This document shows, in pieces, positions 25,812-59,912 of a stretch of DNA of 64,000 nucleotides. Source of the stretch: Candidatus Latescibacterota bacterium (lineage in GTDB: Bacteria; Latescibacterota; UBA2968); the NCBI GenBank assembly GCA_965198115.1, contig OZ240241.1, forward strand, positions 8,160,001-8,224,000, in the 5' to 3' direction. Numbering within the stretch: the first letter of the stretch is position 1; each line of letters starts with the position of its first letter. The translations under genes were made by a program, and so were the position numbers. The notes under the pieces were generated by a model. That model saw nothing but the letters and a program-made list of their open reading frames with translations. It was not told the DNA's origin and did not search any database.

Positions 25812-25831
25812 TCAATCCACTGGAGGGAACT

Positions 25832-26107
25832 ATGGCTGTAACCGTTCGCATCCCCACACCGCTTCGCAGGTTTACCAACGATCAGTCCGATGTAAAAATT
25901 GACGGCGGGACCGTTGGTGAGGTCGTCGACAACCTCGAAGCCGCACACGCGGGTATCAAGGAGAAGCTCGTCGACGAATCCGGTGACATACGCAGGTTCG
26001 TCAATGTCTACGTGAACGACGAAGACATTCGATTCCTCGACGGTGCCCTGACGGCCGTCAAGGATGGCGACAGCGTAACCATCGTTCCAGCGATCGCGGG
26101 AGGGTAG
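25832..26107 (+). CDS. cysO: MoaD/ThiS-family sulfur carrier protein (CysO-like)
   Basis: VRIPTPLR, FVNVYVNDEDIRFL, C-terminal PAIAGG; GGAGG RBS. Confidence 0.9.
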   Translation: MAVTVRIPTPLRRFTNDQSDVKIDGGTVGEVVDNLEAAHAGIKEKLVDESGDIRRFVNVYVNDEDIRFLDGALTAVKDGDSVTIVPAIAGG

Positions 26108-26115
26108 AAGGTCAC

Positions 26116-26547: not shown

Positions 26548-26550
26548 GTC

Positions 26551-27552: not shown

Positions 27553-27810
27553 TTACGCTTCGAGCGTGCCGACGTGCATAGCCAAGCGAGACTTGTAGCG
27601 CGCACCGGTACGGTGGTGCAGCACGCCTTTTCTGACCGTACGGTCGATGACGGACATCGCCTCGGGCAGCAATGCCTCGGCCTCTTGCTTGTTCTCGATC
27701 GTTCGCAGCTTCTTGACGGTCGATCTGAAGAGGGTTCGCGCGGCCTTGTTGCGTTGGGCCACTTTCTGCGCCTGTCGATTTCTCTTTATGGACGATTTGA
27801 GTCTGGGCAA
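27553..27810 (-). CDS. rpsT: 30S ribosomal protein S20
   Basis: KSSIKRNRQ...RNKAART...KGVLHHRTGARYKSRL; TTG start with AGGAGG RBS. Confidence 0.95.
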   Translation of the reverse strand: MPRLKSSIKRNRQAQKVAQRNKAARTLFRSTVKKLRTIENKQEAEALLPEAMSVIDRTVRKGVLHHRTGARYKSRLAMHVGTLEA

Positions 27811-27847
27811 CGTAGAGCCTCCTGGATCCCATTTCTTCAGGCTCGAG

Positions 27848-27876
27848 AATATACCAGGGTGGCTAATGCCACACAA
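27848..27876 (-). promoter_or_regulatory. Promoter of rpsT
   Basis: Minus strand TTGTGT-N17-TATATT. Confidence 0.55.
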
Positions 27877-28089: not shown

Positions 28090-30372
28090 TTAGTCCGCCC
28101 GCCCGGCCGCTCTGGCCTCTCGCTCCATATTCTTTTCGCACGCCCGGATTCTGCCTTCGGCGAATTCCTCGAATTCCTGATCACCGTCCCACAGATCCAG
28201 GAACGTCTCGAACAGTGACTTGGCTTCTTTCCAGCGTCTGAAACCATATCGGAGCACGCCCAGGCTGAAGTAAGCTCGAGGGAAGCGCGGGTCGACTTCG
28301 ATCGCCTTCCGATAGGCCCGCTCGGCGCCGATCGGGTCACCCACGATTTCGAGGGCCCGACCTGTGCCCCAGTGAGTGAGCGCCTCTCTCGGACTCAGTT
28401 CGGTCGCCGTCCTGTAATGGTGAAGGGCTGTGATGTAGTCCTCTCGTCGCACCAGGAGCTCGGCCAGGTTGTGATGTGCCTGAGCGAGATCTGGATCTGT
28501 TTCCAGGGCACGACGGTAAAAGACCTCCGCCGAATCCACCTCCCCGCGTGCTTTGAGGATGTTCGCCAGGTTGTTGTTGGCTCCTGCATCCCGGTCGTCT
28601 ACCGACAGTATCTTTCGATACTCTGCTTCGGCTCGTCGAACGTTCCCCGTGGCCCTGTAGAGAGCTCCAAGGTTGGTGCGCACGGTCTTTGCGTCGGGGT
28701 AGATGGACAGAGCCGCTTCGTACTGTGCGAGAGCTTCGTCGTGGCGGCCCGTTCTTTTGTAGATGATCCCGAAACCGTTGTGCGCTCGCCACGCATAGGG
28801 GGCTTGCTCCAGGGCTCTCAGGTAAGCCGACTCCGACTCTGCGTGTCGGCCTTGCTGCTCGAGGCTTCGTCCCAGAACGATCAGCGCGTGGGGGCGAAAC
28901 AGACCCGACGAAACCGCCAACCTGGCTTCCCGTTCCACGTTCCCCCATTTTGCCCCGTCTTCCTCCGCCAATGCGGCAAGAAAGTGACGGTCGAACCTGA
29001 TCTGGCGGTGAGTCGTTGCCGCGGCCCCCATGGCGAGTAGGAGAAGGATTCCCACCACAATGCTCGCGGGACCCCGCGACAAGGTTATCGTTCCCCCGCG
29101 TGCAGCCGCCACAGCGCCCCCGATCGCGAAGATAAATGAGATTGCCTGGGGCTGTTCCCTGGGAAAGCTGAAGAAGCCGTGTGTCGCGAATCCCGCGACG
29201 GTGACTGCCAGAAACGGAGCGAGCGCAGACCAGGCTTCGTCGTCTCGCATTCTGTAGAGTTCGACGAGGAGGAGAAGGGGAATGGCCGCGTAGATCAGCC
29301 CGGCCAGGATTCCGCTCTCGGCGGTCACCCAGAGATAGTCGTTGTGAGGTCGTTTGGGAGACGAGTCCGGGCGGAGCATGACGCCGTCGTCGTAAGCGGG
29401 GTAGATATGCTGCCAGCTCCCCAGACCAACCCCCGTCAGCAGGTTGTCCCAGATCAGGTCGGCTGTCCTTGCCCACATGGCGAGACGACCCCGATCGCCC
29501 GTCTCCGCTGTCAACGACTGGAGCGTCGCGACGACGTCCGCTTTCTTCTCGTCGAACCGCTGGAGCCCCGTGTCTTCGAATCGTTCGTCCAACGGAGCGA
29601 GGGCGGCCGTGAGTAGAACCGCACCACACAGCACGATCCGTTTGGCAGTCGAGCCCAGCTGGCCGGGCAGGTTGCGACGGTAGAGTGATGACCGGACGAC
29701 CAGTGCGCATCCGACGACAGCACCCATCGTCAAGCCGAGCCAGGCGCCACGAGTGCGCGTGTAGACGAGAAACACGACCGACAGAGCTGTAGCGAGAGCG
29801 GGGAGGACAGCCAGCCACGTCGAAGGGGTGGCAAGCGCGAGATAGAGCGTGGCGGGGATTGCGCAGATGAGAAACATGGCGGCGAAGTTTCTGAATCCGA
29901 AGGTCGCGCTCGGCAGCCCGTTTGACGGAAGTGCGATCGGGGACAGACCCTGGTACTCCAACACGCCGATCGTGGATGTGAGCAGGGCCGCGAACGTGAC
30001 GCCCCAGATCGCGACCGTGAATCCGCGAGCCGAATCGAGCGACGTCGCCGCAAGCGTTCCGAGTGAGAACAGGACGATCAGAAAGGCGGCCTCTCCGAGT
30101 GCGTGGTCGGTGTTGGGAGCGTGGAGCGCCGAAGCGAGCGCCAGTCCCGTATACGCAGCCAAGAGACCGGATAGGGTGTTGCGTGGCAGTTCGAGCTGTC
30201 GCTCCGATTGGACCCGCCACAAGAGATGGGCCAGGCCGAGTGTAGTCAGTACGGCGAGCAGCCACCGCTTCGGCAGCAGGGCGTATTCGTAGATTCCGGG
30301 AAGAAGGGCAAGAGGCACGAGCGCAAAAACGAGGGCAATCCAAATGGCCCCGACGGTGCGTTGTGTGGTCAT
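28090..30372 (-). CDS. O-antigen ligase/O-OTase-like (Wzy_C) membrane protein with C-terminal TPRs, paralog 1
   Basis: About 12 hydrophobic segments; PSATFGFRNFAA, YTRTRGAW, GVGLGSW, RPHNDYL..AESG, FSFPRE; TPR tail. Confidence 0.85.
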   Translation of the reverse strand: MTTQRTVGAIWIALVFALVPLALLPGIYEYALLPKRWLLAVLTTLGLAHLLWRVQSERQLELPRNTLSGLLAAYTGLALASALHAPNTDHALGEAAFLIVLFSLGTLAATSLDSARGFTVAIWGVTFAALLTSTIGVLEYQGLSPIALPSNGLPSATFGFRNFAAMFLICAIPATLYLALATPSTWLAVLPALATALSVVFLVYTRTRGAWLGLTMGAVVGCALVVRSSLYRRNLPGQLGSTAKRIVLCGAVLLTAALAPLDERFEDTGLQRFDEKKADVVATLQSLTAETGDRGRLAMWARTADLIWDNLLTGVGLGSWQHIYPAYDDGVMLRPDSSPKRPHNDYLWVTAESGILAGLIYAAIPLLLLVELYRMRDDEAWSALAPFLAVTVAGFATHGFFSFPREQPQAISFIFAIGGAVAAARGGTITLSRGPASIVVGILLLLAMGAAATTHRQIRFDRHFLAALAEEDGAKWGNVEREARLAVSSGLFRPHALIVLGRSLEQQGRHAESESAYLRALEQAPYAWRAHNGFGIIYKRTGRHDEALAQYEAALSIYPDAKTVRTNLGALYRATGNVRRAEAEYRKILSVDDRDAGANNNLANILKARGEVDSAEVFYRRALETDPDLAQAHHNLAELLVRREDYITALHHYRTATELSPREALTHWGTGRALEIVGDPIGAERAYRKAIEVDPRFPRAYFSLGVLRYGFRRWKEAKSLFETFLDLWDGDQEFEEFAEGRIRACEKNMEREARAAGRAD

Positions 30373-32390
30373 GGCTTGGCTACGGGCAGGGATTCGAGTC
30401 GGTCTTTTGCCACGTCGGCGTAGGTGGATGGACCAGGTGCACGGGCGAGAAAATTTCGGAAAGCCTGTTCCGCTTTATGACGTGCTCGAGTGCGGAAGTA
30501 GAGCTCACCCAGGACGAAATACACGTCGCTTCGACCGGGATCGAGCACCTTCGCTTGCTCCAGGACTTCGATGGCTGCCGCATCTCGCCCAGCCAGCGAG
30601 ATCGCGTTTCCGAGTCGAAATAGCAGATCGGGCGTGTCTGACTCCAGACGCCTGACTGTTTCGTAGGCGGCGACGGCATCCTCGAAGCGCCTCATTTGGA
30701 GATAGAGGCCTCCCAGATTGTAGTATAGATCCGGAGCAGCGTCTACCAATCGAAGCGCGGAGAGAAAGTGGGATTCGGCCTCCTCGTGCCGTCCACCGTT
30801 CTGAAGGGCGATCGCGTAGCCGTTCAGAATCTGGACATCGTGAGGACGTCTCAAGACAACCCATTCGTAAAACGATGCTGCGTCTTCGAAGTGACCGGTG
30901 GTGTTGAGCGCGTATCCGTAGAGGTGCATCGCCTCGGGATGGAAGCGCCCCGAACGCAGGGCACTCGCGGTGTGGGCAGCGACCGCATTCCAGTTTCCGC
31001 GTAGCTCCTCGCGTATGGCGTGCGCGACGTTTCGTTCGAATTCAAGAAGACGGTAGGTCATCAAAGGCAAAGTGGCGGCCACGACGATAGCGGCGTGCAG
31101 CCAACGAGGTCTGCGAATGGCTCGAGCGGGCTCTGCGCCGAGTGCGAGCGTGATGGCGATGACCAGCCAGAAGTAGAACAAGGGCGTGACGCGCTCCAAA
31201 GGGAAGCTGAAGCAGCTGTGGACCAGAATCGCGACAAGACTCCATACACACGCCAGCGTCAGCCAGGGCGTCGCGTGTTGTCGTCTTGCGAGCGCCTTCC
31301 AGGCAGCCCGCAACGTCAGACCGAGGATCGACAACCACAGGATGAGTCCGGGAATCCCGAGCTCGGACAGGATCAGAAGCGCGAGGTTGTGCGGGCGCTC
31401 CGGGGCGTTGGTGAAGGTGATCGTCTCGCCCTCGTCGTAGGGTGGGTAGGCGATCGCCCAGTTCCCCGCCCCCACACCGGCAACGGGTCGATCCAGAATC
31501 ATTCCCAGGGTGTTTTGCCAGACGGTGATGCGGCCGCGGTCGCCTCCTTTGTCCAGGACGGAGGTCAGTGCGTCGGTGACGCGGCTCTTTTTTTCGTCGA
31601 TGCTTTGCGGTCCTGTCTTTCCGAGCCCCGAAGGGAGCGAGGCGATCGCCGCGGCGATCAGACACGCGTACACCAGGCTCGTCATCCGCGTCCACAGGTG
31701 GCCGAGGAGGTCGCGTCGCGTAATCAGCAGGAGCGTGAGGACGATGAAGAGCCCCACGAGGCTTCCGAGCCAGGCGCCCCGCGTACGCGTCAGGATGATG
31801 AACCCGGCGATCAGACCTGCGCCGACAGCGGCGTATCTGCTGGTCCGTCGTTCGGTGTCGGCGATCAGAAAGCAGGCGAACGGTAACGTCTGGATCGCGA
31901 CCATGGCGGCGATGTTGCGGAATCCGAGCGTGGCACTCGGGAGACCGGCAGATGGCGCATCCAACGGTCGGTAGCCGAGGTGCTGTAGGATGCCAAGGGC
32001 CGCGATACCCACGCCAGCTATGGTCAGCGCACGGGCGATGGTTGGAAGGGAAGAAACCGGGTATGCGTGGACGAGCAGGAGGAGACAGAAACCCGTCAGG
32101 AGCTTGGCGACGACGAGGACGGCTGGAACCGGATCTGTCGCCCAAATAGCGGATGCGGCACTGAGCGCGATGAAAGCGGCGATGACCGGGAGTTCAGTCC
32201 GCGCCGGGGGTCTTGCCCGTTTGATCGCGGTGCAGGCGAGGACCAAACCGGCAAGCGTTCCGACCTGGAGCAGCATCAGCTTTGGGGGGAGTGTGTAGTC
32301 CCGGTAGGCGGTCCCGTAGACCAGAGGAACCGCCAGGACCAGCGCGACGACGATCCGACGCGCCCACGTAGTGGAGGCCGCTTCATTCAT
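30369..32390 (-). CDS. Wzy_C + TPR protein, paralog 2
   Basis: PSATLGFRNIAA, TRTRGAW, GVGAGNW, RPHNL, FSFPLE; TPR tail; start at MNEAAST. Confidence 0.85.
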   Translation of the reverse strand: MNEAASTTWARRIVVALVLAVPLVYGTAYRDYTLPPKLMLLQVGTLAGLVLACTAIKRARPPARTELPVIAAFIALSAASAIWATDPVPAVLVVAKLLTGFCLLLLVHAYPVSSLPTIARALTIAGVGIAALGILQHLGYRPLDAPSAGLPSATLGFRNIAAMVAIQTLPFACFLIADTERRTSRYAAVGAGLIAGFIILTRTRGAWLGSLVGLFIVLTLLLITRRDLLGHLWTRMTSLVYACLIAAAIASLPSGLGKTGPQSIDEKKSRVTDALTSVLDKGGDRGRITVWQNTLGMILDRPVAGVGAGNWAIAYPPYDEGETITFTNAPERPHNLALLILSELGIPGLILWLSILGLTLRAAWKALARRQHATPWLTLACVWSLVAILVHSCFSFPLERVTPLFYFWLVIAITLALGAEPARAIRRPRWLHAAIVVAATLPLMTYRLLEFERNVAHAIREELRGNWNAVAAHTASALRSGRFHPEAMHLYGYALNTTGHFEDAASFYEWVVLRRPHDVQILNGYAIALQNGGRHEEAESHFLSALRLVDAAPDLYYNLGGLYLQMRRFEDAVAAYETVRRLESDTPDLLFRLGNAISLAGRDAAAIEVLEQAKVLDPGRSDVYFVLGELYFRTRARHKAEQAFRNFLARAPGPSTYADVAKDRLESLPVAKP

Positions 32391-34501
32391 GCTCGGTCTT
32401 CTCGATCTGCCCATCGAGTATCCGCGCCTGCTCGATGAACGTCGCGTCCCCCTTCCAGAGCTCGATGAACTTTCGGTATTCGCGGACGGCGCCCGAGCTG
32501 TCGCCCGCCGATAGAAGCAGGTCGGCAAGATTTCTGTGCGGGCGCGCATAGGCGGGGTCGAGAGCGATCGCTTCCAGGTAAGCGGAGCGTGCGTCCGGGG
32601 TTCGACCGATTTTTGCGAAGGCAGCGCCCGCGTTGTTGTGGTGTCTCGCGATCTCTGGTGCCAGGGCGATGGCTTTGCCGAAGGCGACGGCAGCAACCTC
32701 GGTCAGACCCGACATCAAGGCCGATTCACCAAGTCGATTCTGGAGGGAGGCGTCCTCGTCATCGTGTAGCAGCGCTTCACGATAGAACTTCACGGCGGCC
32801 TTCCACTCGCGATTCGATCGAGCGGAATCTCCGAGGGCCGTGGCGACTCTGATGATCCCATCCCGGGGCACCGAGTATGAAGGGTAGATGGATCGTTCCC
32901 GGAGATAGCCTTCGAGCGCGCCACGCAGATCCCCCTTTCTCTCCCTGACCTGGGCCAACGGCAGATGGCCTTCGTTCGGGTGGTAGCGGAGGGACTGCGT
33001 GAACGATTCGATCGCTTCGTCATACTGTCCAAGTCGCTCGTGGGCAAGACCGTTCAGTTGGAGCGCTCGAAAGTTGATCACGGTCGGGTCCAGGGCCGCC
33101 CGAGTGTCCCGCACGACTGAATGCCAGTCTTCACGGTTCCAGGCGTTGACTGCCCGGGCAAAGTGTCGATCGAAGTTCAAACACGTGAGAGTGATTCCCG
33201 CGCCGACCGCGATCAGGACGGCACCCGCGGAGAGGTGCCACCGCAACGAGCGTCCACGATCGGTCGGGTGGTCGGATTGCGACGATCAGACCGAGCGCCG
33301 TCCAGAACAACATCGATGCTGCGACGCGTTCCCTCGGAAAGCTGAAGAAGCTGTGGCCGAGGTAGGCGAGGGCACCCGCACAGAGAGCGAGTTCCCGGAC
33401 GTCGCAGGCCCGCCACAGACGGATACCGATGAGGCCGACGATCCACAGATAGAGTGCCAGACCTACGACACCTGTCTCGGCAAGGACCCAGGCGAAATCG
33501 TTGTGCGGTCTTTGTGGTGCCGTGTTTCGTGTAATCCATTCTCCCCGATCGTAGACCGGGTAATGCAGCATCCAGGCGCCCAGACCAACGCCCGATACCG
33601 GATGATCGGCCACCATGTCGAGCGTGCGACGCCAGACGGTGAGTCTTCCGCGAGCCCCAGACGGTGCGAAGACCTGGCCGAAAGTCGTCGACAGATCGGT
33701 TTTCCGCTCGTCGAACCCGAAGTCTCCCTCCAATGTCATCTGGTGCTGGAGCGGCCCTGCGACACAGACGATCAGGACGGCCAGTGCGCCTATCGCGATT
33801 TTCATTCGTCGGGAAGGAATCTCGAGCAGGCTGCTGGTCCGTATCGCGACGATTAAGGCACAGATCGTGGCCACTGCCAGACCCACCCAGGCACCCCGAG
33901 TGCGGGTGTAGAGCAACAACAGCAGCATCAGCGTGCCGGACAAAGCCAGGGTCGCAGCGCGGGCGGGCGATTCTTCCACGAGTCCGAAACCGATGACGAC
34001 GGGGATCGAGATCACCAGGTAGGTGGCGACGTAGTTTCGGTAGCCGAAGGTCGAACCGGGATTGCCCGCTGAGGGGACGACGAGGGGATCGACGCCGAAG
34101 TACTGACCGATACCGACGCTGGCCACGAGCAGCCCGGCTACGGCCCATACCCAGACGAGATCACGGGCAACACGCTCGCCGTCCAGACGCGATACATACG
34201 CATAAGTAAAGACCATGCACGTGAGCGAGGCCAGTTGGACGACGGCTTCGATCGCGTTCAACGCCCAAAACACCGAGAGAACGGACCACGACGTGAATGC
34301 GAGTACTGCGATGTCGAATCGGGCGCGACGTCTGATCGAGGGGGCGACGACGATCAGACCCGCCAGCCCGAGAACCACGCACACCTGAAGGACCAGAAGA
34401 CGGGGCCACCGGGTGAAGTCGTAAACGTCGCGTACGAATAGCAGAGGCACGACGAAGAGGGCGACTGCAGCTGGTAGAGCTGCGAGACGGAAACGGTTCA
34501 T
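32383..34501 (-). pseudogene. Wzy_C + TPR protein, paralog 3 (frameshift ~33240)
   Basis: PGSTFGYRNYVA, YTRTRGAW, RPHNDF, FSFPRE in ORF 33131-34504; last TM segment and TPRs in ORF 32383-33246. Confidence 0.8.
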
Positions 34502-36592
34502 CACGGCGTGATCGTCTCGAGCAGGTCGGTCAGTATCTTCACGCGCTCGCGAGCACGCAGGGCGGCATCGTCGTTGCGAGGCCAGCGCTGTAGAAAGGTC
34601 TCATAGGCCCAGAGCGCTCTTCGGGCGTGAGCGGGGTCTGCGTCGGCCTCGAGACTGTGGGCTTCACCGAGGTCATAGTAGAAGGAGGGGTCGGAGGGCT
34701 CCAGGGCGATGGCCTTCTCGATGGTGATGACCGCCTCGTCGATTCGTTTCGCTGCAATGTATGCCAGTCCGAGGTTACTCCAGGCGTCCACGAAGTCGTC
34801 CTTCAGTTCGATGGCCCGGCCGTAGGTGGCAATTGCCCCTTGCAGGTCTCCCCTCTGCTGCGCGATCCCTCCGAGGTTGTTCAGTATCTGGTAGTGCAAC
34901 GGAGCCAATGCGAGGGATCGACGGTAGGATGCTTCCGCGGCATCCATGTCGCCCTTGAGGGCGTAATTGGTGCCGAGATCGCCGAGCAGCTCCGCCTATG
35001 CGGATGGTAAGCGAGGCCAGTCCTGCCGGCATCGATGGCTCGACCGTACTGGCCGATCGCCCGGTAGCCTTTGGCTTGGAGAAGATGGGCGCGCGTGTCG
35101 AAAGGACCGATTTCGAGAGCCGCCGTAGCGGCTGCGAGCGTTGCACGAAGGTCGTTTCCGGCGTGGAAGGACAGGGCTCGCATCAGGTGACGGTCGAACC
35201 TCAGAGCCTGAATCGTGAAAGCAAGACATCCACACGCGAGGCCGGTGGCCAGAATCCAAGTCGTTTTGGAGCTTCGGATGCTTTGGGATTCGGAGGAGGG
35301 GGGGTGTAGCGTGACCAGAAGCGCCAGGTTCAACCAGAAGAGTAGTGACGTTTCGGCGAGCTCCTTCGGAAAACTAAATACGGCGTGGCCGAGACTCGCC
35401 ATCAGGCTCGCACCGATGGCGAGCCCCCAGGTGCGGGTCTGGGCGTTTCGGACAGCTCGCAGGAGGATCGATAGAGCGGCCGCCAGCATCCAAAAGTAGG
35501 TCGCCAGACCAATCAGACCCGTCTCCGCGGCAATCCAGAGGTAGTCGTTGTGGGGGCGTTCGGGCGCGGACCCCACTTTCAGCATGTCCCCCCCATCGTA
35601 GGGTGGGTAGGCGTATTGCCAGTTCCCAGGGCCGACACCCAACACTGGATAGTCGCCGATCATCGCGAGTGTGTGCGACCACATTGTCCGTCGCCCGCGG
35701 TCGGCACCCGGGCGGCTCGCCGAACTCAACGCGTCGAGCAGCGCCGTTTTTCCCTCGTCGAGGTGCCGCGATCGCGACGGTGACAGATTCGGATTCCACG
35801 GCCCCAGTGCGAGGACAAGCAGCGCCATTGCAACCGCCAGACGTTTTCCGAAGGAACTGGAGAGTGTGGGACTCCGGGTGGGGCGATAGATCAGACAGAG
35901 CATGCCGGTGGCAGCCCCGGCGACCATCAGAGCCGCCCAGGCACCCCGAGTCCGGGTGTAGACGAGGAACACCGACATCAAGGCAGTGGCCGCGGTGGCG
36001 ATGCCATACGTACGTCGCGATCGAGTCGTTGCAACCAGACCGATTGCGATCGGAATGCACACGACAAGGTAGGAGGCGGCCATGTTTCTGTAGCCGAATG
36101 TCGAACTGGGACGGCCGTTCGACGGAAACCCGCTCAGATCCAACCCCCAGAACTCGCCAATGCCGATGAGGGAGGCGAGTCCTCCGGCCCAGCAGAGGGC
36201 TTCTGCCAGTCGGGGAATGTGCGACCGGTCGAGGATCTGAACCGCGCAAAAGAACACGAGGACATAGGTCAACAGATGCGAAACCGACTCGATGGCGGCC
36301 ACCCGGTTGTGTGCTTGGGCAACGGCGATGGTCGTCGTCGCGAAGTAGACGATGACGGGCAGGCTCAAGATCGACCCGCGCAGAAGGGGTGATTCGATCT
36401 TGAACGCGTCCCGAGTGAGCAGGAGGAGAAGGATCAGCAATCCGATCTGGACCGCGAGCCGCTTCGGAAGAAGCGTGAAACGAGCAGATCTCCGTCGAAC
36501 ACGAATGTCGCGGCAATGAGCGTTGCCGCGATAATGCGGAATCCCCACGAATCGGTGACACGGATAGCGGCTTGTCTGTGGCGCTTCGCCAC
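34501..36592 (-). pseudogene. Wzy_C + TPR protein, paralog 4 (frameshifts ~36485 and ~34996)
   Basis: PSSTFGYRNMAA, YTRTRGAW, RPHNDYL, FSFPKE; TPR tail in ORF 34501-34947; GTG start abuts the stop of paralog 5. Confidence 0.78.
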
Positions 36593-38619
36593 TCAGTCGA
36601 CTCGCTTCCTGAGGTTTTGTAAATGGGCCCGAATCTGCTCGGCGTAATCGGGGTCGCCTTGCCACGCCCGAAGAACGATCTCGTACATATCGATGGCTTC
36701 GTTCAGACGACCGGACTGTTCGTAGGCCATGGCGAGGTTGTTACGGGCTTCGTTGAAATTGGGATTGAGTGTGATGGCTCGTTCAAGATGGCGAACCGCT
36801 GCCGCCGGGTTCTGCCGGTAGAGCTCGACCGCGCCGAGTGCGGCGTTGGCCTGAGGAGCGAAGAGGTCGTGGGACACGAGCGGGAGAAGCACCGCTCGCG
36901 CGGCATTGAAGCGGCCCGCTCTGATGAGTGTGTTTCCGTGATTGATCTGGATACCCCCATCCGTGGGTCGCAGACGGTGGGCGGTTTCGAAGTGTCGAAG
37001 GGCGCTGGTAAAGTCGTCCCGACGCGCGTAAACGCCCGCAAGATTGTGGTGTGTGTTTGCGTAGTTCGGGTGGTCGTCAAGGGCGCGCACGTAAGCGCTC
37101 TCGGCTTTCGCCCATTGACCGTTCTCGTGGAGGGCCTTCCCGAGGATGAATGTGATGCGATGGTCGATGGCTCCCAGTGGAATCGCCGTCTGGGATTCAG
37201 CGATGGCCAGAGACCAGTTTCCCGTCTGCGCCGCCCAGAGCGCTCGGGAAAAGGGACCGTCGAATCGCAGGTGACGCCACCCGGTTGCAAGAACAAGCAG
37301 ACAGACGACCACCGTAAGCGCTCCCAGTCCCCTCGGTAGACACGTCGATCGACTCGGTGTCTCCTTATGTGCGATGCCGATTCCGGCCAGTGATGTCCAG
37401 AAAAGGAGGAGCGTGGCGGGCTGCTCCTTCGGAAAGCTGAAGAGTCCGTGGACCGTGAATGCGGTCAGGCTGGCCGCACACGCCAGTCCGATGAGTGCAC
37501 GTTCGGGATCGATCGATCGCGAGACTTCCCACGCCTTTTTTCCCGCAGAGACGAGAAGCCAGAGGTAGAAGCACAGACCGACAAGCCCGATCTCGGCCGC
37601 AATCCACAACACGTCGTTGTGAGGTCTCGCCGGTTCCGAAGTCGGCGTGATGCGAGTGCCCCGGTCGTAAGGAGGATATGCGTATTCCCAGTTGTCGAGC
37701 CCGACACCCAGTATCGGATGGTCGCGGATCAGGTCCAGCGTATTTTCCCAAAAAGTCAGTCGCCCGCGAGCGCTGTCCTCGTCAAAAGCAGACTGAAGGG
37801 CGACGAGGGCGGTCGTCTTCTGTCGGTCGAATCGTTGGATGACGGCGTCAGAAGGGTTTTCCGAACGTGTTGCGACGAATGCGGCAAGGCCGACGAGGAT
37901 CGCCATCGCCAATCGACGAGGTTGCGTGAATGAACGCAGCCTGGCCGTCAGTTCATCCCGAAGAGGTCGGGCGCCAGCCACGACGACCACGACGATCGTG
38001 CACGCTGCGGCGAGCGCGATCCACGCGCCTCGTGTCCGCGTGAAGACGAGGAGGGTCCCCATCAAGAGCGTGCAAACGAGTGAGAGTGAAAACACTCCCT
38101 GCGATTCGGACCTGAGGATACCGAGTGTGGCCAGGGGTAAGGCCACGACGAGATACGATGCTGTGACGTTCCTGAAACCGAACGTGGCGCTGGGCAAGCC
38201 GACGGATGGAATCGACGTGAAGGCCAGGTCGAAATACTGAGCGATGCCCACGATCCCGACCAGGCCACCCCCGATCGCCAACGCCGAACACGCACTCACG
38301 AATCCTGCCGTGTCGACAGAGGACGTGACAATGGCGAAGAGGATCAAACCCGCAACGAGAGGTGCCATCTCGATCACGCTCGACAGCGGATTGTTAGCCC
38401 AAAAGGCGGACCCGACGCACACGAAGACGTAACCGAGTGCGGGCAGCAGCAGGCGAGTCGCGCGTATGACGGGCCGCGGCGCCCAGATCACCGCGAGCGC
38501 GCCGATTAGCACATAGAAGCCGGCGCGCTTGACGACCAGATCGGACCCTTCTTCAGGGCGGAACAGAAGAGGGATGATCAGGAGTCCCGCACCGAGGAGC
38601 CGGGTCTGGTATGGGCTAG

Positions 38620-40173
38620 GAGCCTGTCGGAGTACCCAGCCGGAGGAAGATTTCGTATTGTAGAAGTGCGATCAAGGTTCCGACTCTGAATTGGAGGTTT
38701 CCGTTGAGCACTTCTACTCGGTTTCGTGTCTACAATCCGGCTCAGTTGATGTTGCTGCCTCCGGATCTCCGGAGTTGGCTTCCCAAGGGTCATCCGACCT
38801 ACTTCATTCTGGATATCGTCGGACAACTTGATTTGTCCGCGATCTACGAGACCTACGATGGGTCTCAAGGTGGCCAGCCACCGTATGATCCCCGGATGAT
38901 GGTGAGCCTACTGCTGTATGGTTACTGTGAAGGCATCAGGAGTTCCCGCAAGATCGAGCGTGCGACCTATGACTCGGTTGCTTTCCGTGTGCTCAGCCTG
39001 GATCAGCATCCTGATCACGACACGATATCGACCTTTCGTCAACGGCATCTGGATGCCCTCTCAGGTCTGTTCAGGCAAGTGCTGTGTCTCTGCGTGAAGG
39101 CAGGTCTGGTGAAGCTGGGACACGTGGCGTTGGATGGCACGAAAGTCAAAGCAAATGCCTCAAAACACAAAGCGATGAGCTACGGCCGGATGAAGAAGAA
39201 AGAAGCCGAGATCGAGGCCGAAGTGCGCAGACTCTTGACCGAGGCCGAAGCCACTGACGCGGCCGAAGACGAACTCTACGGAAAGGACAACCGCGGCGAC
39301 GAGTTGCCCGAGGAGTTGCAGCACCGGGAGACTCGACTCAAAGTAATCCGCGACGCAATAGCCGAGATCGAAGCCGAAGCGGAGGCTGAGTTTCCTGAGA
39401 AGCAGGCAGCGTATGAAGAGAAGGTAAAGGCCCGGGAGCGCCGCGGCGGTCGTGGACGTAAGCCCAAGCCTCCATCGAAAGAGCCCGACTGAAAGGAACA
39501 ACTGAACTTCACCGATCCCGACTCACGGATCATGGTCTCAGGGGGCCAATTCCTTCAAGCCTACAACTGCCAAGCTGCTGTGGATGACAAGGCCCAGATT
39601 GTCGTTGCTGCCGACGTCACCCAAGAAGCTGATGACAAGAACCAGATGACACCTATGGTCAACCAGATCAGAGCGAATATGGGCGGCACGACACCCAAGC
39701 ACCTCACTGCCGACACCGGATACTTCAACCAAAGTCAGGTCGATCAGGTTCAATCAGATGGCGTCGACCTCTATGTGGCGACGACAAAACAGAAACATGG
39801 AACGCCCATCGCGACCTGCCCCAGGGGACGGATCCCCAAGGGCGCAACGACGAAAGACAAAATGGCGAGAAAGCTTCTCACACAGAAAGGTCGCTGCACC
39901 TACTGGAAAAGAAAACAGATCATCGAACCCGTGTTTGGACAGATCAAATCCGTTCGGAACTTCACCCGATTCTCATTTCGCCGAATCCACAAAGTCATCA
40001 GAGAATGGAACCTGATCTGTCTCACACACAACCTTCTGAAACTCTATCGACTCTCATTGGCTACCTGATCCCGAAGAGGAACTCGGCTCAAGGAAAAAAC
40101 GAAGGTAACCGGTCGCTGACAGACTCAGCTGGACTTAATCTCAACGAGCTTCCGGGTGTAACCCGACAGGCTC
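38620..40173 (+). mobile_element. IS1182-family insertion sequence (1554 bp)
   Basis: TIRs GAGCCTGTCGGAGTAC / GAGCCTGTCGGGTTAC; CTAG target duplication (38616-19 and 40174-77). Confidence 0.9.
38704..40068 (+). pseudogene. IS1182 transposase with an in-frame TGA at 39490-39492
   Basis: GGQPPYDPRMM, SSRKIE, PDHDTI, ALDGTKVKANAS, then NFTDPDSRIM, QAYNCQ, ADTGY, IEPVFGQIK continuing in the same frame. Confidence 0.85.
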
Positions 40174-42084
40174 CTAGTTTTTATCTCGGTCATCTTTGAC
40201 ATTCAGGAGTTGCTGGAGACTCCTTAGTGCGGGAGCGAATTCTGGCGAAAGGACAAGGGCATTCCGGAACTGTCGTTCCGCTCCTCGAAGATCGCCGCTC
40301 AGGGCGAGGGTCCTTCCCAGATTCACCCGAATCAGGGGATTATGGGGCGCCAGCTCCAGGGCTCGCTCTAGGGACCGAATGGCACTTGGCCACTTGCGGC
40401 CGTCTCTGTAGATGTTGCCCAGGTTGTTGTGGGCCTCGATGAAGTTGGGATACAGTTCGATCGCTCGCCGGGCCGAGTGCTCCGCCTCCTCGAGACTCCC
40501 TGTTTTGCGAAGGGCGATCGCGACGTTGTTGTGGGCGTTGATGGAATTCGGGTGCAACTCGAGCGCTCGACGATATGCGTCGATGGCCTGCGAGGGGCGG
40601 CCTTGATGGTCCTGGGCCCGTCCGACAGCGATGAACGTGTTGGCTCGGTAGCTACCGATGGCTGCCGCCCGTGCGCCCGATCCGAGCACCCCGTCCCAAT
40701 CTTGCTTTCTCTCCGCGCGATGGACATTCAGGTGATGGATGTCGTATGTGAGTCGCTTTACCGTCAGGTAGCCCCCGACGATCAGAACGGACGCAATCAG
40801 TCCGAGCTGTAATCGCGCGAACCTCGTGGTGACCGATCGCCCTGGATCGAGAATGAGCAAGATCCCGACGGAGGACCAGAACAGGAACGCCGGCGAAACA
40901 CGCTCGCGCGGGAAGTTGAACACGCCGTCACCGAGCTGGGCGAGGAGAACCACGAGACCGGCGACCGCGAGGAGGCGGTGCTCGGGATCGTGCAACGCCC
41001 TGAGCCCCGATCGGAAGGCGATTAACAGGAACCCGAGATAGGCTGCCAGTCCGATAGCGCCGGTTTCGCTCAGGATCCAGAGAAGGTCGTTGTGCGGTCG
41101 TCTCGGAGAGGCGTTCACGTTGACCTGGTCACCCCAGGCGTAGTCGGGATACACGAATTCCCAGTTGCCGAGTCCCACCCCCAGCAGCGGGTGATCGAGA
41201 CCGATTCGGAGGGTGTGAGACCAGAGGTCGAGCCTGCCCCGATGGCCCGACGCGTCCACAATCGACGCCGCGGCCGTCAGGGCGCTGTCCTTCTTCTCGT
41301 CGAAATGCTGAGCGCCCGGTTTGGCTATCCGATCCGGTATGAGCGCGGCCGCAACGATTACCACCGCAATGGCGGGTCCCATCAGACGTCTTTTTGGACG
41401 GTCGTGCGAAGGTCGGTTCGGGACCCGCCTGGAGATCAGCCAGACGATGAGTGAGGCGACCCCGATTCCGATCCACGCGCCCCGGCAGCGTGTGAACACG
41501 AGATACGTGCAGCAGAGCAACGTAATCGTCGTGTAGCCGATCCGGAAGCGTGCCGTTCGTGCGCGATGGGCCGAGTACCAGGCGAACGGGATGAGGGCAA
41601 TGAGGTATTCGGCCGCGGCATTTCGGTGAAAGAAAGTGGCGCTGGGGTTCGCGCGGGACGGCAAATCCGCCCATCCGAGGCCGAGGTATTGAGAGATCCC
41701 GATGACGGTGACGGGTAGGGCACCCCAGACCCAGCCTCCGATGCAAAGATCCAAATCGCTGGATTTCAGTGTTGCGACTGCTACGATTGGGATGAGCGCG
41801 AGCGTGCTGTAGTGGGCGAATTGCAGGACCGACTCCGTGACGTTGATCGACTGGGTGATCGACAGTCCCATACTGGCCAGGAGCGCGCCCGACGCCAACA
41901 GGGCCCTTGTGTTCAGGCGCGGTGCGTCGAAGAGGGCGCAGATGCAAATGACGATCAGCCCCGCCTGAAGCGCAGCGAGACGGGGGAGCAACGCCCCTTC
42001 GTAAACGTGCGTGGAGTAGACGAGGGGAAGACCGATGCCGAGCGCCATCCAAAGGAAGAGGGTCAAGCTCCGTGGCACCTTCAA
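40174..42084 (-). CDS. Wzy_C + TPR protein, paralog 6
   Basis: PSATFFHRNAAA, FTRCRGAW, GVGLGNW, RPHNDLL..SETG, FNFPRE; TPR tail. Confidence 0.85.
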   Translation of the reverse strand: MKVPRSLTLFLWMALGIGLPLVYSTHVYEGALLPRLAALQAGLIVICICALFDAPRLNTRALLASGALLASMGLSITQSINVTESVLQFAHYSTLALIPIVAVATLKSSDLDLCIGGWVWGALPVTVIGISQYLGLGWADLPSRANPSATFFHRNAAAEYLIALIPFAWYSAHRARTARFRIGYTTITLLCCTYLVFTRCRGAWIGIGVASLIVWLISRRVPNRPSHDRPKRRLMGPAIAVVIVAAALIPDRIAKPGAQHFDEKKDSALTAAASIVDASGHRGRLDLWSHTLRIGLDHPLLGVGLGNWEFVYPDYAWGDQVNVNASPRRPHNDLLWILSETGAIGLAAYLGFLLIAFRSGLRALHDPEHRLLAVAGLVVLLAQLGDGVFNFPRERVSPAFLFWSSVGILLILDPGRSVTTRFARLQLGLIASVLIVGGYLTVKRLTYDIHHLNVHRAERKQDWDGVLGSGARAAAIGSYRANTFIAVGRAQDHQGRPSQAIDAYRRALELHPNSINAHNNVAIALRKTGSLEEAEHSARRAIELYPNFIEAHNNLGNIYRDGRKWPSAIRSLERALELAPHNPLIRVNLGRTLALSGDLRGAERQFRNALVLSPEFAPALRSLQQLLNVKDDRDKN

Positions 42085-44633
42085 GGCTCCAGTCGTTCAA
42101 GCATGTCCTGGACAGTTCTGGTAAACGAAGGATCGCCCTTCCAGTCGCGTAGGAAAGACCGCATAGCGCGTTTTGCGCTGATCGTGTCTCGGATGGCGAC
42201 GTAGACGGGGACATATAATAATGTACGAGGACGGGATCGCCCGCCCAGTGGCGCTCGAATCGGCTGTAGGCCACCGTGGCACTGTCGACGGCGGCTCCCG
42301 TCAGGTAGGCGTTTCTGAGGTTGTAATTCGCGACGGCGTGGGTCGAGTCGATGGCCAGTGCGGCGCGATATGACTCGATGGCCTCGTTGATTCGTCCCTC
42401 ATCGACGTAGACGAGGCCGAGATTGTTGTGCGTATCGATATGATCAGGGTCCAGCTTTGTGGCCCTCAGGTATGTCTCGATGGCCTTTTCCCGTCGACCA
42501 ATAGCCTTGTAGCTGTTCGCCAGATTGTACCAGTGGAGCGCGATGTCGGGTTTGAGGTGGGTGGCCATCGTGTAGTCATCCAAGGCGCCCTGGCGATCTC
42601 CCCGGCGCTCCGCGGATAGCCCCCTTCTCACGTGGGCATTGGCGAGCACGCCGATGGCGGGGGCGTGATGGGTCGTGTCCGTGCCCGGTGTTTTGAGGAA
42701 CCGCGTGTAGAGATCGATGGCTTCATCATAGTCGCCTGCTTCGATCCGAAGGTTGCCGAGATTGACGAGTGCTTCCGGGGCGGGGGTGGGGGAGGTCGCT
42801 GCCCGATGCCACACGGCGGCGGCGCTGTCCACCATCCCCATTTCGCGGTAGATGGTGCCCAGGTTGACGTAAGACCGGGGCCGATTCGGGTGAGCTGACA
42901 CCTTGTAGGGCAATCGCCGAGTCGCGGGCGCCCCGGGCCTGGTGCAGGATCGCCAGGTTGTATTGTGCGGCGTAGTCGTCCGGGTCCAATCGCAAGGCTT
43001 CTCGATAGAGGCGCTCGGCTTCGGTGGTGTCCCCTTGCTCGTAGGCGACAAGCCCCAGCCCGTTGAAGGCGTTGGCGAAGTTTGGATGGTAATCGAGCGT
43101 CCGTCGGTAGGCCGCGCGGGCGTCGTCGTGTCGCCCACGGGCGAGAAGCGCTTCACCACGGATCAGATGGGCCTGATGATCGAACGAGCCATACTTCAGT
43201 GCGTTTTCGACGTGCAGGAGCATCGTGTCGTGACGCTTCTGCATCTGGGCGACCCGGGCCCGGACGTAGTGCCAGTCGAAGAAGGTGTTTTGGACCGTAA
43301 TGGCGCACGCCAGGAGCAGAACGACGAGGAGAGTCCGGGTGATCACAGGGCGGGACTCTTCGTGAGTCGATTCCCGAGACGAAAGCCATCCCGCTGCGAG
43401 CCAGAACAGGACGGAGGGGGCCACGCGCTCCCACGGAAACGTGAATAGTCCGAGTCCGATGTAGGTCAGAAGAGTGGTCACGAGGAAAGTCGTGATCATC
43501 GTCTCCCCCTCTGGCGTCGCCCATCGCCGAAAGGCGCTCCTGCCGAGGGTAAACAGGAAACCCAGGAAGAGGATGAACCCCACGGTTCCCGTTTCTGCCC
43601 AGATCCATAACAGGTCGTTGTGGGGCCTCAATGGATTGAATCCTGGTTCGATCATTTTGCCGCCATCGTAGGGGACGTAGGCGAACTCCCAGTTCCCGAG
43701 GCCCACGCCGAGGATCGGCGCGTCGGCGATCATACGCAGAGTCGCGCCCCACATGTGAAGCCTGCCCCTGTCGCCTCCGGGGCGGAAGACGGACGCGATG
43801 GCCGTCCCGACGTCGGTTTTCCGCTCGTCGAATCTCTGAATGTGCGATTCGGTGAATCCTTCCGGGAGGAAGGCAAGCGCCACTACGATCACCAGAGCGA
43901 GCCCCACGGGTCGATAGCGGTCCGTGCGGACCACGGCCAGAATTTGCCCCGTTGTCGATCGCAGTCCCTCTGATGCGGCGGTCAGCACAACGGCGCCTCC
44001 CGATCCCAGACAGAACCCGACCCAGGACGCCCTCGCGCGCGTGTAGACCATCAGGACGACCATGGCCGCGGCTGCCACGGCACCCAGCATCCTGCGCCTC
44101 GGTGTTTTCCCGGTGACGACGAGGATGGCGGCCAGGGGAGCTCCGCACGCCACATAGGCTGCAGCGAGGTTCCGGTAGCCGAAGAAGGAGCTCGGGCGGC
44201 CCGTCGAAGGAATCCAGGTCGGAATCAGTCCGTGATACTCGAAGATGCCCACACAAGCGACCAGCAGGCCTGCTGCGGCGTGAAATCCGAGGAGATGGTC
44301 GAGCCGGTCCTGACGACTGCCGGCTACGACGAGGTAGAACACAACGAGGGTCGTGTATTTTGCGAGATCGTAGGTGGCGCGAAAGGCGTTGGCTGCCCAG
44401 AATGCGGAGGCTGCGAGAATCGCGACGAAACCGAGAAGCATCAGACGGTCCCAACCGGGAGTGCCCAGGCGCAAGACGGTTGGATCTCGGGCTGCGATGG
44501 TGAGAATCGCGATGAGAACGACCTGAAGAAGCAAAAGCCTGGGGAGGAGGGTGTATTCTTCGATTCCGGGGACCAGAAGGAAGGGAATGACGAAGAATCC
44601 GGCGGACAGGAGGCGGGTAATCAGGCGGTCCAT
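42081..44633 (-). pseudogene. Wzy_C + long TPR protein, paralog 7, first in the operon (frameshifts ~42908 and ~42208)
   Basis: PSSFFGYRNLAA, YTRARASW, RPHNDLL..AETG, FTFPWE; TPRs continue in two further frames to ...QDMLERLEP*. Confidence 0.78.
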
Positions 44634-47600
44634 TCCGCGCTACCGGTGCGCAACACGGAAGGTTCTTCCTCGCACAGAGCAAAGGAACGAGGATCCTTTT
44701 CAATCGTAAACTGGTAATTAACAATATGTTGAATATATGGTGTGTGTGGCGATGGCATCTGGTACAGTCGTTGCTTTTCTGGTTGGTGAGGTAGTCGGCA
44801 CACCCCTTTGCGGCTGCCCATCGAACATTCGATAACCGTAGGCTCTCCGAAAAGAGAGGTCAAGCTCCGGCCCCAAGTAGGCCGGCCATCCCAGTAGGTT
44901 CACCCCACAGCCGTTCCCGGCTTGCCCAGCCGGGGATCGCAGGAGTTTGGTTATGCTCACGATGAGCTCAATCATCGGGCCCAAAGGGATCCGCTCGCTC
45001 ACACGGGTGATGCTCTCCCTTCTCTTCCTCTGTTCGGCAAGTTACGCGCAAACTGTAACTGTCCTGCCCGATCAGATCCCCAACGGAATCACAACGCCGT
45101 CCGAATTCAGACAGCGGATCGACATCGTCCTGAACGGCCCCGAGGCCGGTCTGACGGTTTCGTTCACGATCACGCTCCCTCCAGAAGTGAGCCTGGTCAC
45201 GAATTCAGCGACGGTTACCTCCGACAACTCGGCCCTCGTGCCGTTCTTAAAGGGCATTCCGTCGGCCACCCAACTCGCGTTCGGCCTGACCGGTACGGCC
45301 AATGGGCAGAAAGTGAGCGTGGAGCTCGACGTGCGAACGCCTGTGAGTTTTACGGGCATCAGCAGTGGATCAGCGCTCGATACGGCCTACGTCATCGACT
45401 TCGCCGACGACTTCGCATCGAACGTCGACCGTCGCCCGGAAGTCTTCCTCCACCAGAACAAGCAGATTCAGTTCGTGAAGTTTACCTCGCCCGATTCGAC
45501 GATCGGTGATACGACCACGCTCGGTGGACGGCTCTACCACATGGAATTCGAGCCCCAGTTCGGCACCCAGGGTCTGCCCGACCTGGAGCACACGGGGGTG
45601 ACGACGGCGTCTCAGGGGTTTGTGGACAACGCGACGGATGTCACCTACACCTTTTACGTTTCGACGGACTCCACCCTGATTAAGAGTAACTCCCAAACGG
45701 CAGGGGCCCTGTTCACGATTGGAGCGGACGATCAGCCGCTTGTAGGACAGCGTCAAAACCCACGTTTTATCCCAGCGACCTTCATTCGCGAGGACTTCAC
45801 GACAGTATTCGCCGACTCGACCGAGGCGATGATTTCGCTGGCGAACACACCTGACGACGACAACGTCTTCATTTACATGACGTCCGACGTGACGGACGAC
45901 TGGTTCCTCGGACGAAGCGGGCCCCTCCGCGTCTTGCATCCTCCAGAGTTCGTCATCGCCGGCTGGGACTACTACGACGACGGTGGGGATGACTTTAACA
46001 CGACCGGGCTTATTCAGGTGCCCAGCGAGCTGATCGGGGGCGGCGGACAGAAGGACAACAACGATATCACAGTCGATAGCGGTCTCTTCCTGGCCAGGGG
46101 TAGTGCGATACCCCAGGTCGGGTTCAATCCGTCTTCCATATCGAATCTCGACTTGCTTTTCAAAGTGGAAGACTCTGACAACGCGGGAACAGTCGAAGTC
46201 GGGATTTTCCTGCTTTCGACCGCATTTCCGAGTGTGACCTTGGCCGATCTCGATCCGCTCGGGGGTGGTTCTCCAGACACGTTGAGCAACGCCATTCTGG
46301 TAACGTCGACACTTCTGACGGCAGCCGAGCAGGTGTTCGACTTCGAGCCCCTGACACGCGACGCCGTCGCAGACACGATTACGAGTTTCCTCGATCCAGG
46401 GGACTATCACGTCTACTTCGGCGCGATGGATGCCGACGGCAACAAAGCGCTTCACAGGGTGCGCAGAGATCCCTTCGCGAATCCTGGCGTGGATGCTGTC
46501 CTGACGGCCGGACATTCCTCCACGCTCACGCTCGACCTTGCCCAGTTTAACGATTTCGATGGGGACGGCGACCTGGATGTTGAGACAGGCATCGGCTTGT
46601 CGCAGATGATCAACAGCACGAACGGTCTCGGGCTGTCCATTTCACCATCACGACGGATTGTTCCCATTTCCTGGGGTAGGGCCGGAATTGATGGGGACCT
46701 GGACGTGGACAACACGGCGACCCTGGACCTCTATTTCAGCACGCGAAGTGATTTTCGCGAGGCGGGGGCCAGCATTGCCTATACGAGCGGAAACTCCGAC
46801 GGGACGGATCTTCTTTCGGCTATCGCCCAGGGAGGGACCGACACTCACGAAATCGAGACGAACATCGACCTGTCGGACGACCGTCAGTTCGATAATCTGT
46901 TCGAGTGGGATGTCTGGTCCTATATGTCCCCGGAAGGCACGGTGCCCGCAACAGACACGCGCTACTTCATCTATGGCATTCTGAAGGGCGGAGGACCACA
47001 GAGGCTGGTTTCGTTCACGGGATCGGGTGCCCTCAACTTCCAGCACCCGCCGTATGTGATGGTTAACGAACCCCGCAGTGGAACACTCATGCCGTCCACG
47101 AATCAGCCAGTGACTGTCAGCTGGATGTCCGTCGACATTGACAACGGAGGCACACCCGTAACAGGTGTGCCGGCCAATGGCTTGTCGGCCCCGAACACCC
47201 GGAGCAACGCACCGAACATTCGGATTCTGCTGACCTCCGTGAACCTGAGTGGATCCAATGTAACGACCTGGGCCACCATCACGGCCCTCAGCACGAGTCA
47301 GGGACGCCCCATCTGGATCGCGAACTCGACGGATGGATCGCTCGCCGGCGAGATCGAGCTGAACGAGGGCGTCGACTCCAGCTTCGTGTTCCGTGGCGAG
47401 TTTCTCTATGAGAATCTGGGCGGAGCGGCTACCCAGGGCCTGAAGATTGGAGCGGATCTGGATGTCTACATCGCGGTCGACGGAGGAGGGGACGGCAGTC
47501 AGCCGACCGACTTCCATCGCTTTTCGCCCGTGGTGAAGGCAGGCGGAGATATCCGGTTCACGGGCAGCGAACCGACGGCCGCGCCGACGCCGGCCGACGA

Positions 47601-48103
47601 ATGGGTCGTCGCCAACGAACTGAAGGTCACGGTCGGCGAGTTCATCCAGTGGGATATTAGCCCGAATGTCGCGCCCGCCGGAACCAAGGTCGAGATAGCG
47701 AACATCTACGTGACCGTCGATTCGAGTCACTACTCCCCGGTCGACCAAGACCCTGTGGCGCCCGGCATACAGCCCTTCAGTGTCGGGTCGAAGTCGATGC
47801 TGGATACCTCCCTGGTCACGCAGGGCGCGTATCTCGATCCGACGACGGCCTCGACCTGGCGCTTCGACTTCCGATACGACGACAACGGAGGTTCCGGCAT
47901 CACGTTTTTCGACGGAGCGCATCCATTGGCGATCCTCAACCTCCAGGCGCTGACTTTCACGGGCGCTTCGACGATCACGATCGACGACAGCGGGTCTCGA
48001 ACGAGCAATCTTCTGGATGACACGCTTACGGACCTGGATCCCTCTTCCGTATCGACGACGGTAAATATCTCGTGAGAGGATAGCTGCTTTGAGGTGATCG
48101 GAA

Positions 48104-59727: not shown

Positions 59728-59912
59728 GATATCCGGGCTTCGTGTCCGATCTCACCCCTCGGGCCTGTATCTGGGCCACTTCCTGATCCACCCCCAGGTT
59801 GGTAGTTTTTCAGCGTGACCGTGGTTTTCCCGACGTCCCATCGTTCTAGCCGTGGCACGTGTCTTGCAATTCCCGCAGTGGGCATCTCCGCATTCCACCT
59901 GGGCAAGGTTAC

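Follow-up and report, generated by a model that had tools for sequence, protein, structure and literature searches.

WsfB of Paenibacillus alvei and the WsaB and WsaA proteins of Geobacillus stearothermophilus are predicted O-oligosaccharyltransferases (O-OTases) of surface-layer (S-layer) proteins, and WsfB combines a Wzy_C domain with C-terminal tetratricopeptide repeats (TPRs) and is tied to surface-protein genes (PMC2943079; here and below, statements from the literature refer to the accessible parts of the cited papers). The same domain layout was found seven times in a row in the DNA analyzed here, a window of 64,000 nucleotides from an uncultured Candidatus Latescibacterota bacterium (contig OZ240241.1; G000:C1:8160001-8224000, where G000 is the source genome). 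Open reading frames (ORFs) and a Pfam scan gave seven Wzy_C-TPR genes, all on the minus strand, between positions 44633 and 28090 of the window, and they were named ARR1 to ARR7 from 44633 down to 28090. The array shares with WsfB the Wzy_C domain, the C-terminal TPRs, and a linked surface-protein gene and priming glycosyltransferase. WsfB, however, is a single enzyme, and its monoderm host has a full glycan cluster, whereas the present genes number seven in tandem and five elsewhere in a diderm; the likeness described here is one of domain layout.

The O-OTases PglL, PglS, TfpO, and TfpM likewise have a WaaL-like core with an Arg/Arg/His center (PMC12800693, PMC12645811), and PglS resembles ARR6 in its 13 helices and periplasmic C-terminal domain (PMC12800693). 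Dedicated O-OTases usually adjoin their substrate genes, and whether a Wzy_C protein has a lipid or a protein acceptor is not assignable from domains alone (PMC12645811). In contrast to the array, the published cases considered comprise one to three enzymes per genome. A functional analogy only is offered by TMTC1-4 and TMEM260, GT-C paralogs whose luminal TPRs vary in number, whose substrates have Ig-like folds, and among which the TPR domain of TMEM260 alone is enough for acceptor binding (PMC11292533, bioRxiv 10.64898/2026.03.17.711096); these differ from the array in their GT-CA fold, acidic catalytic residue, and dolichyl-phosphate-mannose donor. The working likeness adopted by analogy is that of WsfB-type dedicated O-OTases with a TMTC-like division of labor (PMC2943079, PMC12645811, PMC11292533, bioRxiv 10.64898/2026.03.17.711096, PMC12871550, PMC10897501, PMC13721041). 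We therefore hypothesize, giving the proposal about an even chance, that the seven enzymes are WsfB-like dedicated protein O-OTases that divide acceptor sites among themselves through their TPRs, in the manner of TMTC1-4. The enzyme class is already known, and the activity of the array is predicted.

Seven divergent paralogs with one active site

PF04932 (Wzy_C) matched all seven proteins at 68 to 94 bits (cut-off 31.7), with TPRs on each, and was found in 74 of 74 alignment rows, which bears out the tandem array that a first-pass annotation had read from the letters and ORFs. The strong divergence it described was also confirmed, the membrane domains being 28 to 36% identical in pairs, and its listed motifs occurred once per paralog in all seven. 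Eight residues (R158, N159, R202, R204, K268, R287, H334, and N335 in ARR6 numbering) were the same in all 76 family rows. When the family profile was compared to the PDB, the sole match was WaaL of Cupriavidus (7TPG; E 4e-7), and the profile alignment placed ARR6 R204, R287, and H334 opposite WaaL R191, R265, and H313 (numbers counted from the alignment), which we take to be the catalytic residues. The earlier placing of the conserved Arg and His at ligase-type catalytic positions was thereby upheld. Support for such roles in WaaL comes from the arginines and catalytic His of PglS, aligned to 7TPG (PMC12800693), and likewise from PMC10449877.

The ARR6 model (predicted local distance difference test score, pLDDT, 94.6) has 13 membrane helices followed by a soluble C-terminal TPR domain and superimposed on 7TPG with Z 25.0 and a root mean square deviation of 3.9 over 358 residues; in the Foldseek listing 7TPG ranked 39, after TPR matches. 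Compared to 7TPG, the array proteins have an extra helix and the TPR domain, and their host has no detectable lipid A pathway. Judged by the charge and conservation of odd and even loops, every other loop is conserved and those between are short, basic, and unconserved, from which the motifs and TPRs would share the membrane's periplasmic side with the active site. The array proteins scored at most 25 bits against RfaL (NCBIfam; cut-off 277), 18 to 21 against the TfpM model (cut-off 600), at most 77 against IctB (TIGR00947; 366), and at most 45 against the PEP-CTERM O-ligase (TIGR03097; 188). Wzy_C_2 reached 21 to 22 bits (cut-off 28.5) in two of the seven, neither PglL_A nor the DUF1736/PMT-like GT-CA module (TMTC, GT105) matched any, and no pilin substrate was present among the scanned neighbors. 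The genes are members of the Wzy_C/WaaL-like GT-C superfamily, with WaaL fold and Arg/Arg/His center, and are not members of WaaL, PglL/PglS, TfpO/TfpM, or TMTC; from PglL, PglS, TfpO, and TfpM they are set apart by the lack of PglL_A and Wzy_C_2 matches and by their own invariant R158-N159, R202, and K268.

Of the TPR regions, that of ARR1 (42081..44633) is the longest, at about 400 aa in intact orthologs, and that of ARR2 (40174..42084; 636 aa) the shortest; the TTG start of ARR2 overlaps the ARR1 stop. These two genes are followed by ARR3 (body at 36593..38619), ARR4 (34501..36592), ARR5 (32383..34504), ARR6 (30369..32390; 673 aa), and ARR7 (28090..30372; 760 aa). Overlapping or abutting genes had been claimed for all junctions; this was correct for five of the six, while the ARR2/ARR3 junction holds an insertion sequence (IS) of 1,554 bp, IS1182. 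In five relatives the start codon lay −25 to +15 nt from the upstream stop at 28 of 30 junctions, and tight packing was therefore deduced to be the ancestral state. Translational coupling of the array genes may be read from this spacing. A sigma-70-like promoter was not found in 44600-45000, and Rfam gave no match near the array, only a tRNA at 22206. In the whole source genome, Wzy_C gave 17 matches at 16 loci; the expanded family accounts for 12, five of them outside the seven-gene array, and DIV, a divergent sister clade, for one.

Age of the expansion and paralog-specific residues

Among 30 relatives, Wzy_C matches numbered 10 to 16 in nine, three to six in five, and one in 16. A tree of 98 membrane domains (nine partial or weak rows dropped) gave one clade per array position with Shimodaira-Hasegawa-like approximate likelihood ratio (SH-aLRT) support of 99 to 100; a second tree of 82 rows (five dropped), which brought in G062 and G063, again gave position clades, and a 28-row tree gave bootstraps of 95 to 100 per position. 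On the last tree (LG+G4; one long-branch warning inside ARR5), a single clade of the source genome's seven paralogs was rejected by the approximately unbiased (AU) test (p-AU 0.0015). Array order is identical in seven genomes of two families (G000, G001, G010, G012, G030, G062, and G063), and G009 has six array genes at the locus, with one missing. The ratio of nonsynonymous to synonymous substitution rates (dN/dS) was 0.07 to 0.38 where dS was finite, without a consistent difference between membrane domain and TPRs, dS being near saturation. TPR length is fixed per array position, except in ARR5. The seven-fold expansion is thus old, with one-to-one orthology by array position and under purifying selection. 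Both checks proposed in the first-pass annotation, orthology by position and dN/dS of the two regions, are covered by these data; its proposal of an old expansion stood, the second comparison showed purifying selection overall, and neither of the outcomes that it had named as refuting came about.

The paralogs differ chiefly on surfaces that would face the acceptor. Within-clade minus between-clade identity was 0.22 for periplasmic loop 1, 0.20 for TPR1-2, and 0.17 for periplasmic loop 3, compared to 0.01 to 0.06 for cytoplasmic loops and 0.01 to 0.09 for most membrane helices; 20 of the top 30 clade-specific columns lay at 484-598, largely in TPR A helices. The position matching WaaL R139 is also clade specific (R, N, L, or Q). 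These patterns suggest the same donor site with different acceptor-side surfaces, and the clade-specific TPR and loop residues make the subfunctionalization proposed earlier more plausible.

In another order (three genomes), all 15 copies nest within the ARR7 clade at the same genomic place, with five to eight ARR7-derived copies at the locus (G059:C2:2738769-2763307; L175, L177); at L177, five consecutive copies face an S2-like gene (see below). This re-expansion of the ARR7 lineage is an independent second expansion or homogenization. An ARR7 match of 65% identity occurs in a Latescibacteria bacterium record. In a profile search with 7,996 candidates scored, 49 proteins lay at 645 to 786 bits, followed by a drop to at most 331, and the named close matches were from Latescibacterota; each of 28 distant metagenome relatives was a lone gene in the flanks examined. 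A literature search that lay mostly outside the subscription journals gave no publication about arrays of this kind or about glycosylation in Latescibacterota.

Linked genes and their distribution

Divergent from the array lies S1 (44947..51508, plus strand), which encodes a large exported protein bearing cohesin, dockerin-like, and FlgD/type IX secretion system (T9SS) C-terminal domains, followed on the same strand by its paralog S2 (54192..59643) and by S3 (59871..63808), a Big_9/tandem-95 repeat protein with a T9SS C-terminal domain. When intact, S1 and S2 are about 1,750 to 1,800 aa, with cohesin, dockerin-like domain, and T9SS tail. For S1 to S3, an S-layer function is a candidate role. 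The module continues beyond the window (G000:C1:8223804-8236501) with a TPR lipoprotein, U468, ARR8, U301, an HNH gene, a WcaJ/WbaP-like priming glycosyltransferase, and ARR9. U468 (L001:475-1878) is exported and without Pfam or NCBIfam match and by eye has an N-terminal beta-rich and a C-terminal alpha/beta part. U301 (L001:7355-8257; G000:C1:8231355-8232257) is a lipoprotein without family match that ends in Phe and has five to seven conserved D-S/T sites; its model, made without an alignment, had a pLDDT of 39, too low for use. At 10 to 20 kb beyond ARR9, carbamoyltransferases, a methyltransferase, and GT2/GT4 enzymes (L002:1889-12582) are a possible glycan source.

Carriers were defined as genomes with at least three family matches, with the best 11 or so candidates per genome scored. 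There were 17 carriers among 153 genomes, 14 in two families and three in the other order, and 39 noncarriers in the two families. Within these families, S1/S2 and U301 were each present in 13 of 14 carriers, both misses being fragmented assemblies, and U468 and the priming glycosyltransferase ortholog in all 14; none of the four was present in the 39 noncarriers, apart from a distant paralog (41%) of the glycosyltransferase in one. The distribution closest to that of the expanded ligases was the one of U301 (16 of 17 carriers). In the noncarriers G023, G014, G011, and G021, the bystander HNH gene lies directly beside an HD gene, with glycosyltransferase and ligases gone; in G020, congeneric with carrier G030, the HNH gene is lost as well. 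Two further loci appear to be partly deleted modules: at L172, ARR7 directly adjoins U468 and ARR8 is in three pieces, and at L178, ARR2-7 lie directly opposite the TPR lipoprotein.

Envelope genes and an apparent lack of lipid A synthesis

LpxC, LpxB, and LpxK were each found in none of 14 genomes (88 to 100% complete) and Kdo (3-deoxy-D-manno-oct-2-ulosonic acid) transferase in none of five, with positive controls detected in both cases. BamA (5/5), SprA (10/10), and a PorU-like gene (5/5) were present in the genomes searched, with or without the array. An O-antigen ligase usually acts on an acceptor that would be missing along with the lipid A genes, and the array was therefore deduced not to encode ordinary O-antigen ligases. 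Near the PorU-like gene, a Wzx flippase has as its neighbor a separate, shorter Wzy_C gene without TPRs, which is retained whether or not the array is present. The source organism and 13 relatives are thus T9SS-bearing diderms apparently without lipid A.

Proposed role and alternatives

The assignment as protein O-OTases is based on the fold, the invariant active site, the positional orthology, the clade-specific TPRs and loops, the linkage and joint loss with partner genes, and the missing lipid A genes. Further support comes from the WsfB-like domain layout, the separate Wzy_C gene of the Wzx cluster that persists without the array, the usual nearness of dedicated O-OTases to their substrates, and the breakage of array genes together with S1 to S3 in the source strain (see below). 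The acceptors are most likely the large surface proteins encoded opposite the array. In the proposed mechanism, the priming enzyme would begin a glycan on undecaprenyl phosphate and a flippase encoded elsewhere would turn it outward. The common Arg/Arg/His center would bind one kind of donor, an undecaprenyl-pyrophosphate-linked glycan, while the periplasmic TPR groove would hold an acceptor awaiting T9SS export, and each enzyme is predicted to move glycan to its own protein or site. A wider picture is offered more tentatively, as possible but less probable than the assignment itself: a diderm without lipopolysaccharide (LPS), coated with T9SS-exported glycoproteins, in which a dozen WaaL-derived transferases split sites by TPR read-out, a bacterial and independently evolved counterpart of TMTC1-4/TMEM260 that arose twice within the class, as seven fixed types and as the ARR7 re-expansion.

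Several observations weigh against the O-OTase assignment. Wzy_C_2 stays below its cut-off, and PglL_A gives no match. The module holds neither an elongating glycosyltransferase nor a flippase. The related genomes are not independent and represent about three loss events, and part of the joint loss could stem from linkage and from streamlining in general. In the three genomes of the other order, which have their own array, the priming glycosyltransferase ortholog is absent from all and S1/S2 occurs in one; moreover, ARR7 copies took the place of the seven types in that order, and a fixed set of seven specificities is therefore no necessity. U468 (29 of 69 genomes), S3-like genes, and the TPR lipoprotein also occur in a fourth family that has only DIV-type ligases, from which it follows that these three do not need the expanded ligases. 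Finally, 12 family genes face only three or four large partner proteins, and division at the level of sites must therefore be assumed.

Alternatively, the enzymes could build or cap an outer-membrane glycolipid other than lipid A, an LPS substitute that may anchor T9SS cargo, with each enzyme in turn adding a different unit in the periplasm and the TPRs as scaffold of the assembly line. The WaaL fold, the lack of lipid A genes despite BamA, SprA, and the PorU-like gene, the fixed order and tight junctions, the clade-specific R139-equivalent position, and a module with only a priming enzyme would all suit this explanation. It is nevertheless considered unlikely, as SprA, the PorU-like gene, and the Wzx/Wzy_C cluster remain after array loss, making a general anchor independent of the array; clade-specific signal peaks in the TPR groove, one member can be missing, as in G009, and ARR7 can serve to rebuild the whole set. 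Stop-start overlaps that fit equimolar synthesis, and the five to eight ARR7-derived copies at the same place in the other order, could instead indicate subunits of one hetero-oligomeric transferase or interchangeable dosage copies, their differences being interfaces or drift. This is improbable given that all copies keep a full active site, that clade-specific residues lie on the periplasmic side and TPR groove rather than on membrane helices, and that five members stand outside the array, while positional orthology across long divergence speaks against pure redundancy. Wzy-type polymerases or ordinary LPS O-antigen ligases, as the Pfam name and database labels would have it, are very improbable, the LPS part being largely refuted: lipid A and Kdo transfer genes were not found in the genomes searched, RfaL scores fall far short, and the Wzx clusters hold their own shorter TPR-less Wzy_C genes. 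Recent strain-specific duplication under relaxed selection, to which the breakage of four of the seven genes in the source strain might point, is refuted by the position clades, the AU test, and the dN/dS values given above.

The acceptor could also be a sugar on the TPR-chosen protein, the enzymes ligating a larger glycan onto short core O-glycans that a general Bacteroidota-like system places on D-(S/T)-X sites. D[ST][AILVMT] is the Bacteroidota O-glycosylation motif, the transferase for which is called unknown in the accessible text of PMC8729774. The motif was enriched in U301 (59 versus 15 expected, 12 orthologs) and in S3 (179 versus 80), SprA sites are conserved with S/T interchange, and WaaL chemistry uses a sugar acceptor. 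However, S1/S2 were not enriched (139 versus 128), the orthologs are nonindependent, the genome-wide signal was weak (0.97 exported versus 0.83 cytoplasmic), and beta strands often begin with this motif as well; this explanation is accordingly given a low probability. Private sites in 15 proteins of a congeneric pair numbered 14 versus 4, fewer without the module (p=0.03). SprA sites numbered 9, 9, 9, and 9 with the module versus 5, 9, 8, 8, and 7 without, PorU-like sites numbered 8 and 7 versus 5 and 9, the sites of both persist in three other noncarrier genera, and the S3 enrichment is seen also in a family without the module. The array as the general D(S/T)X O-OTase, an idea suggested by U301 and S3, was rejected on the persistence of SprA and PorU-like sequons without the module and the S3 enrichment in the module-less family. 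Several D-(S/T)-hydrophobic sites with S/T interchange occur in nine of nine SprA orthologs (L140, L160, L162-L167), which suggests a Bacteroidota-like general O-glycosylation system in the class; DUF1736 (TMTC-like) genes, present in four of five genomes tested and three in number in the source genome (C1:7960691, 3105564, and 1164044), are candidates for its enzyme.

If the wider picture holds, nature offers here a collection of O-OTases that each act at their own sites and whose targeting domains can be exchanged. The array could also yield O-OTases of new specificities. As the genome removes the lipid A option, as donor site is shared while TPRs and loops differ, and as gain, loss, and re-expansion name candidate substrates, acceptor choice by TPRs is directly testable in Escherichia coli glycoengineering strains. 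The findings also point to surface building without LPS in a diderm of the Fibrobacterota-Chlorobiota-Bacteroidota type with T9SS.

Decay of the module in the source strain

The first-pass annotation had regarded all seven enzymes as competent, which does not hold for the source strain, where only ARR2, ARR6, and ARR7 are intact. An IS1182-family element (38620..40173, plus strand; transposase as two ORFs, 38704-39492 and 39532-40068), inserted at CTAG with target duplication (38616-38619 and 40174-40177), parts the ARR3 ATG (40193, overlapping the ARR2 end) and first five codons from the ARR3 body; the next in-frame common start, at 38512, lies behind the first membrane helix. The genome has 16 full copies of the element. 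Frameshifts break ARR1 (near 42906), ARR4 (near 34995, with a further break near 36485), and ARR5 (near 33257, between membrane domain and TPRs). S1 is split by IS256 (48197-49447), S2 has three frameshifts, and S3 is frameshifted, while U468, U301, the TPR lipoprotein, and the priming glycosyltransferase are intact. Altogether, eight of the 12 family genes and all of S1 to S3 are broken, compared to 15 of 158 control genes overall and six of 29 at similar divergence (Fisher 1e-5 and 0.01, respectively; family genes are longer and p is not length corrected). Since array and partner surface proteins are both broken, the module of this strain is deduced to be decaying and is likely being lost; the decay is recent and local to the strain. 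Intact relatives are therefore the better experimental source. The IS, the decay of four genes, the five further members, the partner genes, and the missing lipid A pathway had all escaped the earlier reading.

Contigs from two runs of one sample matched the window gap free over the breaks, and none had an empty IS site, although they are possibly the window's own source and hence not independent; a second sample reaches the ARR4 site with only 19 letters past it, too short to count. The frameshift sites are not homopolymers, and breaks per kb were 0.02 in genes of >85% identity versus 0.20 at 45 to 65% identity. A long-read artifact as the cause of the frameshifts is disfavored by the gap-free contigs, the nonhomopolymer sites, and the fewer breaks in conserved genes. 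IS1182 (CTAG target), IS256, and ISAzo13 elements occupy window positions 38620-40173, 48197-49447, and 51803-53011 and L001:2843-5099. The source genome is 8.4 Mb, versus 5.6 Mb in a congener, with scattered broken genes, in keeping with IS expansion and decay.

Other features of the region and genomes

Downstream of the array, rpsT (ribosomal protein S20; 27553..27876, minus strand) is a conserved landmark outside the module. Beyond it, 22557-27477 holds a sulfur cluster (a gene CysH-like by sequence, two cysteine synthases, a JAB protein, Rrf2, and a geranylgeranyl-reductase-like gene), conserved in genomes with and without the array. DIV (L003:9991-12183; G000:C1:8273922-8276183) is a divergent single-copy Wzy_C-TPR gene beside a sulfatase, a HEAT protein, and an FtsX-like permease and is retained in the fourth family and in some array-losing genomes. 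Additional RpoB-like ORFs, about 1,000 to 1,100 aa long and matching RpoB only in part, are present in G000, G014, and G030 (G000:C1:3369713 and 1429118; L042).

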